A stretch of DNA of 61,663 nt, counting the filler, from Porpidia crustulata (taxonomy: Eukaryota): assembly GCA_964255105.1 (NCBI GenBank). It is 10 parts of 10 records of this genome, joined end to end, with 100 filler letters (N's around TTAATTAATTAA, not from the genome) between each part and the next. Parts side by side here need not be neighbours in the genome. Positions count along the whole stretch, not along the records: positions 30,954 to 37,026 come from CAXUWE010001639.1; 9 more parts are not named here. One strand, written 5' to 3'. Positions 31,683-43,153 of this stretch are shown in pieces (the first letter of the stretch is position 1; each line of letters opens with the position of its first letter). The notes beneath the pieces were generated by a model. The model was not told the DNA's origin. It did no database searches and saw only the letters and a program-made list of their open reading frames with translations. The translations under genes were made by a program, and so were the position numbers.

Positions 31683-34600
31683 TCAAGCTTCGACGCGCTT
31701 GGCCAAGGATTTAGGCGTCTTTTCTTCGAGTCCCTTCCCTTGAATATTGAATGTCTCCAACGAATTTCTGATTGGCGTTTCCGGGGGTTCCTCGGGCCTA
31801 AATGGTATGTTCTCGGTTGGTTGAAATATAGCCAAGTCCTCTTCAGAGCCCATTCTCTCTGGAGATTGCGTCTGGAAGGTGTCTTGATCGTCTTCTATCG
31901 TGGAAGATGTGATTTCCATGTCCTTTTCTTCGATATCTTCAGTCGTCGTTCCCTTTGTGGTCGAGGACTGAGATACTGAGCTTTCATTTCCATGTATTGT
32001 AGGTAGAGAGACCACTTCCCCAATTGCATTTTCACCTTTTCTGTCCGTAGAGCCAGCGATATTAGAAGATTTCTTTTTGGAGCTTTTCCAACCGCTTATC
32101 ACCTGAATGGATGCTCTTCTCAGCTCCACTTCCTTGCCTTTTATATTCTTTACTTTCAGCATGTCGGTAGCCCGCCGGTACAGAGTTTTCTGCTCATTCA
32201 GGAGCGTAGACACAGTGTCTGGTCGCTCTCGAACACTCTTACTATCTTCAGGCGCGATTTGATCTGGAATTTGCTTCTGTAAGCTTTTCTGCTCCTGGAC
32301 TTGCGGTACGACACTGGTTACTTTTTCCTCCTTCTTGGGATATTCTTTGAGCCCCAGCATGTCAGAAGCTCTTCTCTCAAGATTTTCACGGCCCTCTTTC
32401 AGCTGCTGAATCCAAGTTTCCAGGTTCTCGGAGGTGCCGTGCACTTGAAACCATTTACGCGTCTTCGCCAGCCTTTCATCTTCTCTGAGCTCCTTCCCGT
32501 AAGCCATAATCCATTGAGTACTCCGCAAGAGCGTCTCGGTATTCAAGTCCTTGCCCTGCTGCTCGATTCGGTTCTTAACGCCAAGAAGTATCTCATCAGA
32601 ACTGATGCCCTTAAGCCAGTCGCGGGTAAACGCTTGCGTGCTCAACATCTCCGCTTCGTCGTCGTTGCCAGCTGAAACGCTTTCTACACTCTGCACTAGG
32701 GCTAGGTCATCCGCAGCTAGCTTTTCTTGTCGTGGCTGCTCTTCGAAAGCTACCCACTTCCTACCATTGTCATGCAGTTTCCATCCATTTTGCTTCTGAC
32801 CGCCGTGCGCTCTGAGTTTTCGCTCGTTCTTGTGCATGCGTGGGTTGTTCCAGAAGGTGGTCCCGTCTGTGTGATCAATGAAATACTGCCTACCGTGCCG
32901 AGTGAAACGCATTTCCCACAGTGCTCCCAAAAACTGCCGTTCTTTTTCATATGGATGCCCATCCGACCATGTTTCACTTTCAAAATCGAAGTAAGACATG
33001 TTCCCATTCTCGTGATGTCGCCTAACCCAATTTGGAGGCAACGGCTCGAGAAATGTCCCGTCCGACGTAATGAGGTCTTTTGGGAGGATGAAGGGATATT
33101 CCCGGAGCTCGAACTCAGCTGGATCGTCCAGGTCTAGTACCGGGATGTCTGTATGTGGGACATCCCCACCTTCGAACCACTCCCATTTATTGTTCTTCTT
33201 GGCCAACCTCCAACCTCTAGCGTTATTTTTCAAGGAAGTGTTCTTCACTAGCTTGTTCCTAGTCCACCAAGTAGTCCCGCGCCCATCTCCCCCGTAGTGT
33301 ACCCAGTATCTCAGGCCGTACTCATTGTAGCGCATTTCCCAATTCCGCGCTAGTCTTCGTCGCTTCTCATCGTTCGGGTGGTCAACTCTTTTTATCTTCT
33401 GTTTCTGATTGAAGTAGAACTTTTGACCGCTCTCCTCGTGCAGGAGACGCCATCCTCGTGGGAGGGGCTCTATGAACGTCTCGTGTCTCCGCTCGCTGCC
33501 GTATACCGGCTTGAAGTTATCTGCGCCAGCTAGTGGCCCATCAATTGCCTTCCAGCGAATCTCCCCAGTCTTGAGGTTCCGGTACTTTTTACCCCGTTCC
33601 TCGTCCCACTCGACGTTCCAATTTTCTGGCAGTATGAGCAGTCGTTCCTCATCGATCTCTTGCCTCATGGGATGGGTTATGTGTGTGGTTGGTGGATTCC
33701 TATTATGGTTGACATAGTATTTCTCCCCTTCTGCTTTACGACATAGTTGCCATCCGCAAGGCAGTGACATAATACTTGAGTTGACCCAGTCTGGACTGGC
33801 CCGCTTCTTGGTCACCCATTTTTCAGTTATCCCAGGTCGGTCATTGCGAGTTTCGCCAGTGAGACGGTGGACGAAAGCTCGTGAGCCATCTACGTCATTG
33901 GCTTTCTCTTCCCACCTTTTCGATAGGGGAATGTTTGTAATTCTCAGGCCCAGTTCTTGCTGACTGGGTGTGTTCCATGTGTTCATTTTTTCTTTGCGGT
34001 CATAAAAGTAGGGGACACCGGATTCCGTAACGCGCCTCTCGTATCTCTCAATCAATTGATTGTCGGATTGTAGATATTTAGGCTTGACTCTTCCAGAATC
34101 AATTCTTTTGCCTCGGCGCTTGGACCGCTTACGTTCCACAGACGGGGAACGGTAATCTTCCAACCTAGGAGACAGACCCACGCCTACCAAAGATGTCTCC
34201 AAGCCAGCTTTCAGATTATCTTCAGTATGAAACGATTCTATGAGCGCTTGGCTGGCCAGGGAAATTACAGCAACGGCCCAGCGTGGGGTTCCGACAACAA
34301 AGCCCGCGACAAGCCACGGTAAAGCCTTCAGCCAAGGTAGCTTGTTACTGTCCTCATCAGCGTTGAATATTCCCTTGACAGCCTCTCTCATCAGGTCGAA
34401 CTTGAGCTCCGGCTTCCCATCGGGTCCGCGCTGAATGTATGAGTATTCTGCACGTTTCCTGAGGGAGAGCGACGACTCAAGTATTGATAATAGCCAGTGA
34501 TCACCAAGAGAGCCCGCCTTCTCCCTGATACCATGGCCCTTTGAAATATCCTCCCTGATCCACTGTCTTTTGGGATAAGAAAGAGAGCGAGCAGTTAGTA

Positions 34601-35291
34601 TTTCAAGGGTATTTACCAAAACCGTTTTGTGCTTTTCTATCACTTCCTCGTCACACCCTCGTCGACGATAATACATGGTCGTCATTGACAGTATTGCATC
34701 GCAGAAGAAACCCCTGACAAATTGCTCTAACGACTTCAGATGAGAACGTAAATGACTTAAGCCCCCAATTTCCTGGAGTAGGTTATCCACGGCAATCTGA
34801 CAGTTGTGGTGCCATACACTATAGTTGTTGAAATTTAAACGGTCAAGACGAGAGAATTGAGAGTTTCCAGCCGTCATGATCTCCTCATCGGTCAAAGCCG
34901 TGGAACCTTGAGGGTACTGTTCACAGATCCGCCTTTGTTGTTCCACATCCCACCTGGACATACGCAGTCCAGTACGGGTGGGGTCGTCATGAGCTCGCTG
35001 TAATTCGAAGTAATTATCTCCAACCCGTATGGCCCAATGCATGGCCCAAGAGAATTTCGTTTCGCTCTTGTCTACCACCTGCTTCATGAACCTTACACCT
35101 TTTGGCCCTTTGGATGTTTTGAATGGTGGAGTAGTGACAATCACGATATCGCGGACATCGTCTCGATTTGCAAGGCGTTGTTCCAGCTTCTCCTCCTTCC
35201 GCTTCGTTTCTCCTGCCTCCCCTAGGCTATCAAGGTCATCGCAACCCCCATAGTTTGGGGTCTTCATATCGAATGCTAAGAGCTTCCCCAA
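31683..35291 (-). CDS. PPPDE/LRAT-like (permuted NlpC/P60 papain fold) domain fused to 8 WW domains; termini probably damaged
   Basis: HWAIRVGDNYFEL (His codon 35037-35039), GSTALTDEEI and YSVWHHNCQ (Cys codon 34800-34802). WW repeats such as PLPRGW..GQKFYFN..HP and LWEMRFTRHGRQYFIDHTDGTTFWNNP. Coding-like sequence extends upstream to ~35800 across frameshifts and downstream to 31539. Confidence 0.85.
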   Translation of the reverse strand: MGKLLAFDMKTPNYGGCDDLDSLGEAGETKRKEEKLEQRLANRDDVRDIVIVTTPPFKTSKGPKGVRFMKQVVDKSETKFSWAMHWAIRVGDNYFELQRAHDDPTRTGLRMSRWDVEQQRRICEQYPQGSTALTDEEIMTAGNSQFSRLDRLNFNNYSVWHHNCQIAVDNLLQEIGGLSHLRSHLKSLEQFVRGFFCDAILSMTTMYYRRRGCDEEVIEKHKTVLVNTLEILTARSLSYPKRQWIREDISKGHGIREKAGSLGDHWLLSILESSLSLRKRAEYSYIQRGPDGKPELKFDLMREAVKGIFNADEDSNKLPWLKALPWLVAGFVVGTPRWAVAVISLASQALIESFHTEDNLKAGLETSLVGVGLSPRLEDYRSPSVERKRSKRRGKRIDSGRVKPKYLQSDNQLIERYERRVTESGVPYFYDRKEKMNTWNTPSQQELGLRITNIPLSKRWEEKANDVDGSRAFVHRLTGETRNDRPGITEKWVTKKRASPDWVNSSIMSLPCGWQLCRKAEGEKYYVNHNRNPPTTHITHPMRQEIDEERLLILPENWNVEWDEERGKKYRNLKTGEIRWKAIDGPLAGADNFKPVYGSERRHETFIEPLPRGWRLLHEESGQKFYFNQKQKIKRVDHPNDEKRRRLARNWEMRYNEYGLRYWVHYGGDGRGTTWWTRNKLVKNTSLKNNARGWRLAKKNNKWEWFEGGDVPHTDIPVLDLDDPAEFELREYPFILPKDLITSDGTFLEPLPPNWVRRHHENGNMSYFDFESETWSDGHPYEKERQFLGALWEMRFTRHGRQYFIDHTDGTTFWNNPRMHKNERKLRAHGGQKQNGWKLHDNGRKWVAFEEQPRQEKLAADDLALVQSVESVSAGNDDEAEMLSTQAFTRDWLKGISSDEILLGVKNRIEQQGKDLNTETLLRSTQWIMAYGKELREDERLAKTRKWFQVHGTSENLETWIQQLKEGRENLERRASDMLGLKEYPKKEEKVTSVVPQVQEQKSLQKQIPDQIAPEDSKSVRERPDTVSTLLNEQKTLYRRATDMLKVKNIKGKEVELRRASIQVISGWKSSKKKSSNIAGSTDRKGENAIGEVVSLPTIHGNESSVSQSSTTKGTTTEDIEEKDMEITSSTIEDDQDTFQTQSPERMGSEEDLAIFQPTENIPFRPEEPPETPIRNSLETFNIQGKGLEEKTPKSLAKRVEA

Positions 35292-38311: not shown

Positions 38312-40157
38312 TTTACACGTTCCACAGATAAGAGGTCTATAATATATTGCCCTAATACACCAAGGCACGAGATGAGCTCACTCATCAGAAACTTCAGACG
38401 TCAAAATGAAATGTCAAAGATAACCGGCATCTTTCTGGTTTCTTTCCCGACGTTTTCGAAATACATAGATTTGATTGGCCTCCATCCAAGCTCAAGCTGA
38501 CACTCCGGGCCCAAATCGGATCGGTATTGCAACGACTTAGCTCCATGGCAAGGTAGCCAACTATCGGTCTGGTATTCGGAACGATTCCCATCACTACACG
38601 AGACAATGAATAATCATACGGAAGCTCATAATTGCTTACACAGTCATGTCGGCAGTTTTTTCTCGTGGCGCCAATACTGCTCGCAAAGCTAGTGGCCTTT
38701 GTCCATGGCAATGCCTAAGAGCAGCAATTATACTGCCTTCGATATGCGTTGTTGTTTGGCGTATGCAGGAACAAGAGAAGAGAGCAAGACTACGATGAGC
38801 CGTCCGCGTGGACGAGATTCTCTTACATAGCTATGACGCGATGGGATTCGCTCACTCCCTGCTGAGTGTCCTGTTGCTCCCGTATCGAGCCTTGCAGCGC
38901 AGGCACCTCAAATCCTTCTGCTTCATGTCAACGTATCTCTTCCATGAAGCTCGTTCATCTTATCATACTGCAATGGCTTAAGGCCGATAGATGCAACGTT
39001 TTCAAATTGTGTTCTCATCGATTTGACTTCGGTCAAAGATGTGTTTCTTTCACTCACTTACTTCGGTTGCTTGGAGATTTGGATGATCAAGAGGTGTGTG
39101 TCTGCATGCACAATTATACACATATAGAATCTTCTGGGATCAACTTAAGGATCTAGAAATATGTAGCAGGGGTTTAGGCTGAGCAAACACGCCCAATAGG
39201 ATCCTATCCAAAACAATCGAGGCAAAACAAGGCAAACAAGGGGTATTGAATAATCGTATATCGGCGAACGGGCAACATTACAGGTGCAAAAACTCGGCCG
39301 CAATATTCTGATTGTTTTCTTCAAGCCCGGAAGCAGGTCGGTGTGTCTCATGAGATTTACTACCTACAATCTCTTGGATGCAAACGAATCGAAAGAATAC
39401 ATGGGATGGGTTGCGAGGTACGTACAATACTGCGTAAACGCATAGTACCTTGCATCATTGAGAAGGCCGAGACTGGCGATAATTGATAATCAGGTACACA
39501 AGGTGACAAGGTGACAAGCTAGTTAAAGGCTAAAGCGCAATACGAAGGAGGCTGAGTAAGGCTGCGGCGTAAACTCTATGGAGCCAAACCAATCAGAACA
39601 TCGCTTAAAGATGCGACAAATGTCAGCCTCTAAGTCCGGCCTATCACCATACCTTAGCTTTGCATACCTTCAATGAAATACAAACATGCAATCGACGCCA
39701 AAGTCCAACGGTCTTGCACGACCGGGGGTAACCAGCGGCCGCGTAAATATTCGCGTTTGGAAGACCAGCCCATTGGGTAAGGTGGTAAGGTACCAGGGTT
39801 AAGACAGAATGCAGATGGATTGGCATTGGGGAGCTTGGCTGGGAGCAGGTAAGCATTGTAAGGTAATGTAGACTTCGCCTCTCTTGCATAAGAATCCGTG
39901 ATTCCATTTCAAGCAAAAAAGCCCGCGACTAAGTACGGAACACTAGTCGAAGGATGCAAATCGTTGTCAAGACTCGAAGTCATGGCATCAAGGTTATCAG
40001 CCCTCTTTTGCGGCTCAACGATGTTATGTCGTTATTGTGACCTTTCTTCTTTTCTTTCTTACGGTTCGATAAGTCACTCGTTCTCTTTTTTCGCCTTCGG
40101 ATTGCAGTGTGGTATCGACTTCAGCAGCGCGTCCAGATTGTCTTGCTGAGCTACGCT

Positions 40158-43153
40158 ATGTTGCTGTATCCAAAGACGGGATGGATTATGCACCGGTGGG
40201 CGTGGTTGATCGCTTGCACTCCGATCGGGGTTATGGCACAATTCAACTCGAGTATGTACATACCATACTCTATTTCTTTTGCAAGACTGACCGTCATATA
40301 GCAACTTATAATTACAATCGCACTTCTTCGTCTATGATTACAGCTCCTCCAATAATGACTGGAGTGACGAATAAAAACTGGAATTGCTCGCCATGTGCCA
40401 TCAACGTGGATGCAGGCGGACTCCAACGTATAGTTTGGTTTACTGAGACCATCAGTCTAAACCTTGACACTGTCTCAGTGTTCGTGACTACCTACAACGG
40501 ATCGAACTCCACAGCCATTACTAGTTATTCCACCATATACGGCGATATTGAAGCGGTCAATGCTTCCCAAGTACCAGCTGCGACATCAATATACCAGTAC
40601 TACATTTTCAACGCGGTAATGCAATATGGAGGCGGAGGGAGCATATATCTTGCAAGGGCAACCGATGGACGAATCAATTCCGCAGCATCGTATGCATGGC
40701 CAACACCTTATATGGAGATATCAGCTGTTGCGTACACAACCACCATACCCTTTAGTGATTGCCCTTCTGGTTTGCAACCTGTGACGACCAATATACTGAC
40801 CGATTATTTTTGCGGTTGTGCCTTGGATGGCACTAATCATGGAATAAACCCTTTGGAAACTAACTCAGGTCTCGCCACCACCAAAATCAATCTACCATCG
40901 AATCTCTACTTTCCAATATCACCAAAAGACTTCAATATGACTCTGCTTGAATCTAATATGCTTGATGAATTTGCGTATCTGAACTTTAGTGATCTTACGT
41001 CTTCGCTAGCGAAGCAACCCTGGGCTACGTCTCTTATTCCGAATATGCAGCAGTGCATTCAAGGTGGCATGCCTCAAGGTCCCCCTGGTGTCAAGATTCC
41101 AGTCTCAGCGCTTACAACAACGATCACAACTACCACGCATGGCATCAATTCGTTACCTCCTGCTTCCTTGCAAACAAGCAGCTCTTCTGCGCTACCAGGT
41201 CCAAGCCCAAATCCAATATCGACTCCGACCCCTACTACAAGTCCGAGCCCATCGACGAGTAATAGTCCTAATCCACAGCAAAGCTCGGAATCGCCCGGTA
41301 CGTCTCCAAGCAAGGAAAGTAGCGCTGTCATTGCTGGCGGCAGTAGCAGCGTTAGCAAGGCTGCTGGAGAATCCGCTGTGGCCGTGGGTAATCCAGCAAG
41401 CTCTCCGACTACTTCCCTTGCGATACAAAACAGTCCTACTTTAAACTCATTGAACAATGGGGTACCCAGCGCCCCTATCAACAGTTTGACACAGCCTAGT
41501 CCCTCATCAGTTATAGCCAGCGCTTTACCAGTAACTCAGGCAGTGGTAGCAAGTCAAACCATCCCTCTCCCGTCTTCCGCAGTCTCTCAACTCGTCGTTG
41601 CAGGGACCACATTGGCCGCCGCTGGCCCTGCTGCTACTATGGGAGATCAAGTGGTCTCTCTGCAATCAAGCGCTTTAATTGTCGGTACTTCCACCCATTT
41701 GTTCGTTCCATCTGGAGAACCAACGGCTGTCACGACTATTGGTAATTATATTGTTCACTCGGTGCCAGATAAAAGCGCCCTTGTTGTTGCTGGCTCCACC
41801 TTGAATCCAGGTGCTTCTGCCGTTACCATTGCTGGAACGGCAATCTCACTGGGCTCTTCCAACCTCGTCATCGGATCCAGTACAATAGCCCTTTCTTACC
41901 CCCCTCAAGAAGAGTCTTATGCGAATTCAGCTCAACAAGCTGGTTCCTATCCGACTGAAGTTGTGACACTAGGACATACAATCACACAAGGAGCTCCTGC
42001 TATCACGGTCTCGGGAACTCCCATCTCCTTGGGCTCTTCAGGCCTTGCGATAGGCTCTACAATGATCTCTCTTCCATTTGTTACTCCATACCCATCCGAA
42101 TATGTAACACTAGGCCACACCATCACCCAAGGCGCTCCCGCCATTACGGTCTCGGGTACGCCTATCTCTCTGGGCTCTTCAGGCCTAGCGATAGGTTCTA
42201 CCACAATTTCTCTTTCACCTGCTGCATCTCCCGCCATCTTCACCGCCGCAGGGCAAGTCATTACTCCTCTTTCCAACGGCGGTGTCATCGTTGCGGGCAA
42301 AACGATTGCCCCAGGGGCGCCTGCAGTCACAGTCTCGGGCACGCCCATCTCCCTGGGCTCTTCGGGGCTCGCAATAGGTTCTACGACGATCAGTCTTCCT
42401 TCGACCACCTCACAGGCAGTCTTCACCGTCGCAGGCCAAGCCATAACTCCCCTTCCAAACGGCGTCATCATCGCGGGCCAAACGCTCTTACCAGGCGCAC
42501 CCGCCATCACCGCATCCGGAGCCGTCATATCCCTCAGTCCATCAAACCTCGTCATCGGTACCTCAACCATCGCTCTATTGACGACCTACTCCCCCCAGCC
42601 CACCGGCTTTACCCTCGGCGGTCAAACCTTCACCATCTCCCGCGCCGCAGTAGCCATCTACGGCACCACACTAACGCCCGGCGCCCCAGCGACCACAATC
42701 GACGGCACCCTCATCTCCCTCGGGGCCTCGCAACTCGTCATCGGCAGCAGCACCTACGCCCTCCCCACGACTGCAAGTCTTCTCACACTCGCCAACGGAG
42801 ACGTCTTCACCGTCAACCCCGTCGAAGGCGTACAGATTTCCGGATCCACGCTCTTGGAAGGCGGGTCCGCACTCACGGTCGGCGGAACCAGAATCTCCCT
42901 TGGCACGGGTGGGGTGGTTGTGGGTGATAGCACAGTGGTAGCGCAGACGACACAGCAAGGGGTCGGAGGAGCCATCATGGCGGGTTTCGGCCCGTCGTCC
43001 TCGACAGCGGGAGCGGTGGCTGCGAATGGGACGGTAACGGGGCAACTTGCGACGTTTTCGGGGAGAGCGGCGACGTTCAAGAGGTGGGACGGGTTGGTCG
43101 CGGGGGTCGCGGGGGTCGCGGGCGTGGTTGGTGTTTTAATCGTATGGGTTTGA
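40158..43153 (+). CDS. Secreted Ser/Thr-rich repeat cell-wall protein, probably GPI-anchored (adhesin/mucin-like)
   Basis: Signal-peptide exon (MLLYP.. or MHRWAWLIACTPIGVMAQ from 40188) spliced through intron 40252-40301 in frame into ORF 40109-43153. Cys-containing N-terminal domain, S/T/P linker, repeats GxTxTxGAPAITVSGTPISLGSSGLAIG, hydrophobic C-terminus. Confidence 0.85.
41963..42214 (+). repeat. Intragenic tandem repeat, 141-nt period
   Basis: 41963-42073 and 42104-42214 both encode VTLGHTITQGAPAITVSGTPISLGSSGLAIGST.ISL; further diverged copies flank them. Confidence 0.9.

Follow-up and report, generated by a model that had tools for sequence, protein, structure and literature searches.

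Several families of cysteine enzymes in the circularly permuted NlpC/P60 superfamily carry a catalytic histidine ahead of the cysteine: the PPPDE/DeSI proteins (PF05903; PPPDE1/DeSI-2, 3EBQ, and mouse DeSI-1, 2WP7), the LRAT/PLAAT proteins (H-rev107; PF04970) and the picornavirus 2A proteins of the H-box/NC type. CLN5 (6R99), which also enters the comparison below, is lysosomal, glycosylated and luminal. WW domains in tandem are the targeting modules of the NEDD4/Rsp5/Itch ligases, and in Pin1 and WWOX one or two WW domains guide a small catalytic domain of a different fold and chemistry, with no membrane segment. Here we describe a gene of Porpidia crustulata (GenBank assembly GCA_964255105.1) whose product, in our reading, joins a PPPDE-like catalytic domain to a hydrophobic segment and an array of WW units. 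It lies on the minus strand of a 61,663-nucleotide stretch of DNA (the window) made up of 10 joined parts of that genome, in the part that comes from CAXUWE010001639.1, and is a single uninterrupted, intron-less open reading frame (ORF; 31683-35267) for a protein of 1194 amino acids (P0001; the lichen protein in what follows).

With a rough probability of 0.6, we propose that the lichen protein is an active, PPPDE-like enzyme of the permuted papain fold that is membrane associated and guided by its WW units, a joint claim that commits to no one substrate. We take its N-terminal domain to form a previously unrecognized branch of a known superfamily, one that Pfam does not detect, within an architecture that is itself new. 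An earlier note on this DNA had thought the architecture undescribed and, in agreement, full-text searches, whose coverage leaves out subscription journals, found no paper on PPPDE or LRAT fused to WW domains; a full-text search likewise found none on WW domains in Lecanoromycetes, and the term "WW domain" does not occur in the classification paper PMC10318531. CLN5 has no WW domain and is unrelated in sequence to the lichen protein. None of the PPPDE clusters listed by the Atlas has a WW domain, their partner families being Thioredoxin, PUL and PUB.

Active-site pattern and predicted fold of the N-terminal domain

The earlier note had recognized a permuted papain-fold enzyme in a histidine placed ahead of an Asn-Cys motif, and the order is as it described: HWAIRVGDNYFEL (residues 77 to 89), GSTALTDEEI (residues 121 to 130) and YSVWHHNCQ (residues 149 to 157) follow one another in the translation, with His77 ahead of Cys156 and both conserved. 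All 20 strings that were looked for, 18 quoted in that note and two added for the mini repeats M1 and M2 (see below), occur there once each. Conservation was assessed on an alignment of 83 rows of relatives of the N-terminal domain (A3), in which the counts on the cysteine side refer to rows with a residue in the column. His77, Trp78 and Leu89 are present in 83/83, and Ala79 and Glu88 in 82/83; toward the C terminus of the domain, Tyr149 is kept in 59 of 64 rows, Asn155 in 58 of 67 and Cys156 in 64 of 67. A3 omits P0037, which has a large insertion; P0046 to P0048, P0053, P0054, P0057 and P0060 to P0062, in which the N terminus is cut short or the His region is missing; P0063, P0064, P0077, P0081 and P0094, which match only the leader ahead of the domain; and P0067 (a Listeria-Bacteroides repeat protein) and P0096 (a coiled coil), which were judged spurious. 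P0072, P0076, P0098 and similar fragments lose all resemblance past about residue 135, probably through gene-model error. In the 14 sequences that span both motifs (alignment A4), including stand-alone relatives at 20 to 29% identity, His77, Trp78, Ala79, Glu88, Leu89, Tyr149, Asn155 and Cys156 are invariant. The His/Cys pair, on whose conservation the earlier note had staked its reading, is thus kept even in stand-alone relatives of 20 to 30% identity.

This pattern can be laid beside that of PPPDE1, whose active centre is given in the accessible portions of PMC3142127 and PMC9012467 as Cys108, His38, Glu47 and Tyr101; there, the usual position of the third residue has a phenylalanine, and a water held by Glu47 stands in. 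On the same partial sources, the lichen domain shares the His-before-Cys order, the His/Glu/Tyr/Cys set, a hydrophobic residue (Leu89) at the third position and a distance of seven residues from Tyr149 to Cys156, as from Tyr101 to Cys108, whereas His77 and Glu88 are 11 residues apart against nine in PPPDE1; the correspondence is one of sequence pattern and not of superposition. From His to Cys there are 79 residues in the lichen protein and 70 in 3ebq, to which its domain is about 16% identical.

A first model of residues 1 to 350, from an 11-row alignment (A2), had a mean predicted local distance difference test score (pLDDT) of 45.9, too poor for searching, and was kept for secondary structure only. 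The AlphaFold2 model of residues 30 to 232, from the 83-row alignment, reached a pLDDT of 74.8 and a predicted template modelling score of 0.59. In it, His77 starts a strand and Asn155-Cys156 start a helix, a papain-like arrangement in permuted order that agrees with the core common to solved members of the superfamily. When the model was compared by Foldseek with 350,542 PDB chains, the top match was human PPPDE1 (3ebq; E 0.052, probability 0.97, template modelling [TM] score 0.47 by target), and the others included parechovirus 2A, DeSI-1 (2wp7), HRASLS2 (4dpz; E 1.6, TM 0.32 by target) and the NlpC/P60 effector TseH (6v98); no match to the PDB reached E<=0.001, and the statistics are moderate. 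Re-alignment of Foldseek's 922 best chains with VIA gave PPPDE1 (3ebq) 7.4, with 118 of 144 positions at 4.2 Å, followed by DeSI-1 (2wp7; 6.0, 112, 3.9 Å), TseH (6v98; 4.8, 115, 4.5 Å), CLN5 (6r99; 4.8, 113, 4.1 Å) and parechovirus 2A (7zu3; 4.1, 95, 6.1 Å). The remaining rows listed cover only a helical hairpin (model residues 148 to 202), and 4dpz is not among the 50 rows listed. A representative-wide VIA search was swamped by matches to the same hairpin and is silent on the catalytic core. In BFVD, the model matched polyproteins of parechovirus and hypovirus, giant-virus LRAT proteins and Pandoravirus proteins, the last with E 0.0035 at best. The conserved His/Cys order and the structural matches to PPPDE1, DeSI-1, TseH, CLN5 and parechovirus 2A make a circularly permuted NlpC/P60-type cysteine enzyme the best reading of this domain.

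Between PPPDE and LRAT, the fold ranks and the Atlas neighbours favour PPPDE, whereas sub-threshold Pfam matches are split. The Atlas neighbours, retrieved by a language model for two stand-alone homologues, are PPPDE clusters and count as leads by the tool's own standard. P0084 scores 0.94 with 186 shared features; P0065, the weaker lead, scores 0.81, with structure rows named DUF862/PPPDE at TM 0.27 to 0.60.

The hydrophobic segment and the WW array

Unlike PPPDE/DeSI proteins, the lichen protein continues after this domain with a conserved helical region of 145 residues, a hydrophobic segment and the WW units (Table 1). The segment, which begins with LPWLVAGFVVGTPRWAVAVISLA (residues 316 to 338), is the only hydrophobic one and is conserved in 30/30 homologues, with P317, L319, G322, G326, T327, W330, A331 and A333 invariant. 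Its 19-residue Kyte-Doolittle maximum is 1.68, at residue 319, and it is broken midway by G-T-(P/L/T)-(R/N/K)-W (G-T-P-R-W in the lichen protein); in the first, low-confidence model it is drawn as two helices (312 to 325 and 328 to 349). Across the 30 homologues, the net charge upstream is about 0 (-2 to +3), and that of the 60 residues downstream ranges from +2 to +14. Stand-alone relatives also have hydrophobic segments, at the very C terminus in P0082, near it in P0083 and several in P0065, suggesting that membrane association may be ancestral to the family. Since WW modules elsewhere are cytosolic or nuclear and translocation of a 315-residue N-terminal domain that has no signal peptide is unlikely, the most coherent topology would be a monotopic hairpin that leaves both halves of the protein cytosolic.

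In a scan of the whole protein, Pfam WW is matched at E 4.2e-13 (49.5 bits against a cut-off of 26.9), as it is in 30/30 homologues. The earlier note had counted eight WW-like units in four pairs, placing them at about 32838 to 34056; the units and their pairing stand, and the strings quoted for them fall at residues 405 to 809 (32841-34055). To regard all eight as PPxY readers is an overstatement, since the ligand-contacting second Trp is found in only four. It is present in U1, U4 and U6 in 30/30 sequences each and in U8 in 29/30, and it is missing from U2, U3, U5 and U7 in 30/30, save for a Trp specific to the lichen protein that lies two residues off in U7. The first Trp is kept in seven units and is Tyr in U1. 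Only U8 and U4 have two signature Trp residues 20 to 22 apart together with a C-terminal Pro, while the Arg-Pro that ends U2 in the lichen protein includes an invariant Pro. The full class I signature (an aromatic pair, His, Thr/Ser, the second Trp and Pro) is complete in U8 and in U1 of 23/30 relatives.

Scanned singly against Pfam, five of the eight units match WW, U8 alone exceeding the gathering score (27.7 bits against 26.9); U2, U6 and U7 gave no match. A custom WW hidden Markov model, built from U1, U3, U4, U5 and U8, drew envelopes on 8/8 units, with U2, U6 and U7 at chance (independent E-values of 80, 50 and 0.58), and was superseded by unit-by-unit comparison with hhalign of profiles from the 30-row alignment. 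By this comparison all eight units are connected: U6-U8 at 98.6% (E 1.2e-15), U5-U7 at 98.5%, U3-U5 at 97.3%, U3-U8 at 97.2%, U3-U7 at 96.6%, U1-U8 at 95.7%, U2-U5 at 95.6% and U3-U6 at 95.5%, with U4 the weakest (70.6% to U5, its best pairing). The mini repeats M1 and M2 are related to each other (95.6%) and, by the same test, neither is related to WW. The kinship of M1 with M2 and of the units with one another indicates duplication of a block made up of a Trp-less WW, a complete WW and a mini repeat, giving U5-U6-M1 and U7-U8-M2.

As the earlier note had proposed, the last WW resembles those of NEDD4, Itch and Rsp5: U8 aligns to WW domains of NEDD4, NEDD4L, Itch, WWP1, YAP, MAGI and Rsp5, and residues 740 to 814 (U7-U8) match the WW3-WW4 tandem of Itch at E 3.6e-8. 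WW tandems are thus common to the lichen protein and NEDD4/Rsp5/Itch, but the former has neither HECT nor C2 by Pfam and a hydrolase-type fold instead; half of its units are without the second Trp, and it has two extra mini repeats. KIBRA, in which a canonical WW is paired with an atypical one as in the lichen tandems, gave a weak match (6j68, E 0.056). No conserved PPxY or LPxY, which might serve as an auto-inhibitory ligand, was found within the family, the two occurrences being isolated and each in a single sequence. Between M1 and U7 (residues ~710 to 727; 33087-33140, minus strand) lies a near-invariant acidic and aromatic stretch, LDLDDPAE.E.REYPF, in which D712, D715, R722, E723, Y724 and P725 do not vary among 30 sequences and which could serve for docking as a linear motif.

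The gene, its relatives and its surroundings

The earlier note had given the span as 31683 to 35291 with no strand; its stop end is exact, and its other end lies 24 nucleotides upstream of the ATG. Conservation of the N terminus, MKTP(Y)Y, is 90% or more throughout the family, and this near-invariance makes the start codon credible. Such conservation is unusual for a leader; that its Thr-Pro makes a phospho-dependent intramolecular contact in this WW-rich protein is pure speculation. At the other end, the codons after the TGA still match the closest homologue, P0002 (87% identical), with 21 of 38 positions identical to its residues 1198 to 1235 (E 2e-8), and the TGA sits at a Gly codon of P0002. 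The match continuing past the stop indicates that the lichen protein is without the conserved basic tail; the TGA could be a recent nonsense change, a site of read-through or an assembly error, the last shared with the one run that covers this site, which is probably the source of the window itself. Relatives about 90% identical, in contigs from three rock-metagenome runs, keep the frame: their insertions sum to 6 nucleotides and changes of ±1 are paired within at most 7 nucleotides, over a coverage that excludes the site of the stop codon. Similarity to these contigs stops at the gene borders, 31795 and 35288.

Table 1. Features of the lichen protein and its gene in the window
Feature	Residues	Position	Strand	Remarks
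Start codon, ATG		35265-35267	minus	ORF translation
MKTP(Y)Y	1-6	35250-35267	minus	N terminus
Predicted PPPDE-like permuted papain-fold catalytic domain	~36-170	34758..35162	minus	
His77 codon	77	35037..35039	minus	proposed general base; opens beta-strand E48-53 of model
Glu88 codon	88	35004..35006	minus	proposed counterpart of PPPDE1 Glu47; followed by invariant Leu89
Tyr149 codon	149	34821..34823	minus	7 residues before Cys156
Cys156 codon	156	34800..34802	minus	proposed nucleophile, in Asn155-Cys156 motif; opens helix H126-138 of model
Conserved helical region	171-315	34323..34757	minus	only helical-hairpin structural matches
Hydrophobic segment	316-340	34248..34322	minus	proposed membrane hairpin/anchor
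U1	405-434	33966..34055	minus	WW E 0.014; Tyr in place of first Trp; second Trp and Pro present
U2, WW-like	447-478	33834..33929	minus	second Trp absent
U3	502-533	33669..33764	minus	WW E 3e-5; second Trp absent, invariant His-Pro end
U4, WW-like	546-578	33534..33632	minus	WW E 0.045; both Trp, 22 apart; most divergent
U5	601-631	33375..33467	minus	WW E 0.0015, WW_1 E 7e-5; second Trp absent, His-Pro end
U6	639-672	33252..33353	minus	both Trp, longer loop, terminal Pro replaced by Asn
M1, mini repeat	683-704	33156..33221	minus	pattern GW..W.WFEGG
U7	742-772	32952..33044	minus	second Trp absent in family consensus; His-Pro end
U8	782-809	32841..32924	minus	WW E 2.9e-6; canonical class-I-type signature
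M2, mini repeat	826-845	32733..32792	minus	pattern GWK..W..FEE
C-terminal tail	846-1194	31686..32732	minus	charged, Ser/Thr-rich, poorly conserved; no Pfam family
Stop codon, TGA		31683-31685	minus	ORF translation
TGA and 47 in-frame codons		31539..31685	minus	codons past stop match C-terminal end of P0002

A word-indexed search with residues 1 to 400 retrieved 48 proteins of 838 to 1431 amino acids, the lichen protein itself included, and Pfam finds WW, and no other family, in every one. The named records of the fusion come from Letrouitia, Bacidia, Gyalolechia, Caloplaca, Loekoesia, Blastenia, Dirinaria, Varicellaria and Lecanora, all lichen-forming Lecanoromycetes, with both Lecanoromycetidae and Ostropomycetidae represented. 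An exhaustive profile search with the N-terminal 350 residues against 1.84 billion representatives returned 47 clusters at E<=0.001. Among the relatives are WW-less, stand-alone proteins (P0065, 398 amino acids; P0082, 399; P0083, 386; P0084, 257; and P0097, 248; P0090 is a fragment) that share the catalytic-type motifs at 20 to 29% identity. As P0083 is named from Hyaloscypha variabilis, a non-lichen Leotiomycete, these WW-less relatives indicate that the catalytic module is older than the WW fusion. A third homologue search, with the mixed alignment A4, returned 10 proteins, none of them new, and did not link the family to annotated PPPDE or LRAT proteins; a search for shorter proteins gave 14 sequences, all of them fragments or close relatives, without a distinct WW-less orthologue from a lichen.

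Other frames of the window encode an NSUN5-like methyltransferase, a transketolase, an RWD/UPF0029 protein, an Alg9-like mannosyltransferase, an AAA ATPase and a P450, and the housekeeping-type frames are split by introns. These ordinary fungal, intron-split frames around the ORF identify the window as fungal chromosomal DNA. An open frame of 1026 codons on the plus strand (40073-43153) matches no Pfam family at E<=0.001.

Candidate activities and their meaning

We infer catalytic competence, membrane topology, PPxY binding and substrate in what follows. As we envisage it, the gene would encode a cysteine hydrolase that belongs to the circularly permuted NlpC/P60 superfamily, associates with a membrane and comes closest to PPPDE/DeSI in active-site layout and predicted fold. 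Cys156, at the N terminus of its helix, would be the nucleophile and His77, at the start of its beta-strand, would activate it, with Glu88 and Tyr149 acting as Glu47 and Tyr101 of PPPDE1. The helix-break-helix of residues 316 to 340 would anchor the enzyme to a membrane, on its cytosolic face, and the WW array would dock on proline-rich motifs of the PPxY type, chiefly through the Trp-complete U8, U1, U4 and U6, with their Trp-less partners as structural halves of the tandems. Docking would bring the thiol hydrolase to its target proteins, where a modification would be removed. For the bond cleaved, we would tentatively put an S-acyl (palmitoyl) thioester or other fatty-acyl linkage first, at less than even odds; a ubiquitin or SUMO isopeptide comes close behind it as a possible target, and acyl transfer from a phospholipid ester seems improbable. 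In the portion of PMC9012467 available to us, PPPDE1, PPPDE2 and Cln5 are described as efficient S-depalmitoylases with little or no peptidase activity and, together with the membrane anchoring, this gives a thioesterase or acyl-directed role a likelihood no lower than that of an isopeptidase role; the hydrophobic S1 pockets noted for permuted NlpC/P60 enzymes in the accessible part of PMC3142127 also favour acyl-directed activity.

A number of observations weigh against the PPPDE-like, membrane-associated and WW-guided enzyme. The N-terminal domain matches no Pfam family at cut-off, and a scan of all 1194 residues finds only WW. The earlier note had looked to Peptidase_C97 and LRAT, and membership in either did not hold up: none of the 30 full-length homologues matches LRAT or Peptidase_C97 even at E<=5, and the matches of isolated domains are sub-threshold, namely LRAT at E 0.1 to 0.17 for the domain of the lichen protein (12.6 to 13.3 bits) and at E 0.014 for P0065, the LRAT scores as a whole reaching 12.6 to 16.1 bits against a gathering score of 24.3, and Peptidase_C97 for P0097 alone among 14 N-domain sequences, with E 0.0021 and 18.3 bits where the cut-off is 29.2. 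That the sub-threshold matches (LRAT in two sequences and C97 in one) fall only on permuted families of this clan speaks, however, for the proposed reading. A profile of the domain, run against the sequences of the PDB, found no solved structure, its best match (E 0.2) being to unrelated proteins. The loop of the model that carries Tyr149 (model residues 115 to 125), which ends two residues before Cys156, has a pLDDT below 50, and the His-side motif HWA..VGD is unlike that of PPPDE and looks closer to that of LRAT. The hydrophobic segment is borderline, with a central Pro-Arg in the lichen protein and most homologues, and could instead be buried inside the protein. Four of the eight WW units are without the ligand-binding Trp, and U1 of the lichen protein has Arg where 23/30 relatives have His.

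The earlier note had suggested an eraser of ubiquitin or SUMO: a PPPDE-like isopeptidase that the WW units would dock on the PPxY adaptors and cargoes of Rsp5/NEDD4, reversing ubiquitination or SUMOylation at membranes. We consider this possible but rather doubtful. The best structural matches, DeSI-2/PPPDE1 and DeSI-1, are described in the part of PMC10318531 available to us as enzymes that remove ubiquitin and SUMO, respectively; U8, alone and in tandem with U7, matches WW domains of NEDD4L, Itch, WWP1 and Rsp5; and a membrane tether would suit ubiquitinated membrane cargo. Yet the stand-alone relatives are membrane-anchored and carry no domain for protein targeting, the hydrophobic S1 pockets mentioned above (PMC3142127, accessible part) count against it, and Pfam finds no ubiquitin- or SUMO-binding element in the whole protein.

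A lipid enzyme of the LRAT/PLAAT type, that is, a membrane-anchored phospholipase or acyltransferase that the WW array only positions or regulates, would draw on the sub-threshold LRAT matches of the lichen domain and P0065, on the permuted fold as seen in HRASLS2, parechovirus 2A and the giant-virus LRAT among the fold matches, and on the Asn-Cys motif at the candidate nucleophile. It would draw as well on CLN5, a fold match that has been reported as a lipid transacylase, on the HWA..VGD-like His strand that the lichen domain has in common with these families, and on the order of catalytic domain and then anchor, which is that of PLAAT/LRAT and which the terminal anchor of P0082 repeats. However, the position of the second His of the LRAT/PLAAT His-His-Cys triad, as in PLAAT3 (about 12 residues after the first), is here the invariant Leu89; LRAT-family structures rank and score under those of PPPDE; the Atlas neighbours are PPPDE clusters; and a protein-docking array of 400 residues would be hard to explain in a pure lipid enzyme, so that we regard this reading as unlikely. 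Still less probable, in our view, is a scaffold with no catalytic activity, in which the N-terminal domain would be a pseudo-enzyme or play a structural part and the protein would serve, at a membrane, as a multivalent adaptor built of WW units. The escape of this domain from every Pfam model, which leaves the WW array as the only confidently assigned part, speaks for it, but pseudo-enzymes usually lose catalytic residues, whereas His77, Glu88, Tyr149 and Asn155-Cys156 are kept in every sequence that spans them, down to 20% identity and including WW-less proteins.

The N-terminal domain defines a small fungal family whose members public records name only "WW" or hypothetical, because domain libraries miss it. 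Placing this family in the permuted NlpC/P60/PPPDE group gives it a testable chemistry. The activity of the PPPDE group is itself disputed among isopeptidase, S-depalmitoylase and lipid transacylase, and a member hard-wired to a membrane anchor and docking WW units is a natural experiment on the targets of PPPDE-type enzymes. If the WW array reads PPxY, a hydrolase would be brought to the clients of Rsp5-type ligases, a regulatory layout that is undescribed. It is conceivable, if less than probable, that lichen fungi have in this protein a membrane-tethered, PPPDE-type eraser that reads the PPxY code of Rsp5/NEDD4 and, at membranes, frees adaptors and cargoes with PY motifs of their ubiquitin, SUMO or S-acyl groups. 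Were that so, recruitment of a hydrolase through the ligases' own targeting modules would be known for the first time, and the protein would represent a new Pfam-invisible branch of the permuted papain fold, with a tail-anchored fungal protein as its ancestral form. Being confined to Lecanoromycetes among the named records, the fusion may bear on lichen-specific cell biology.

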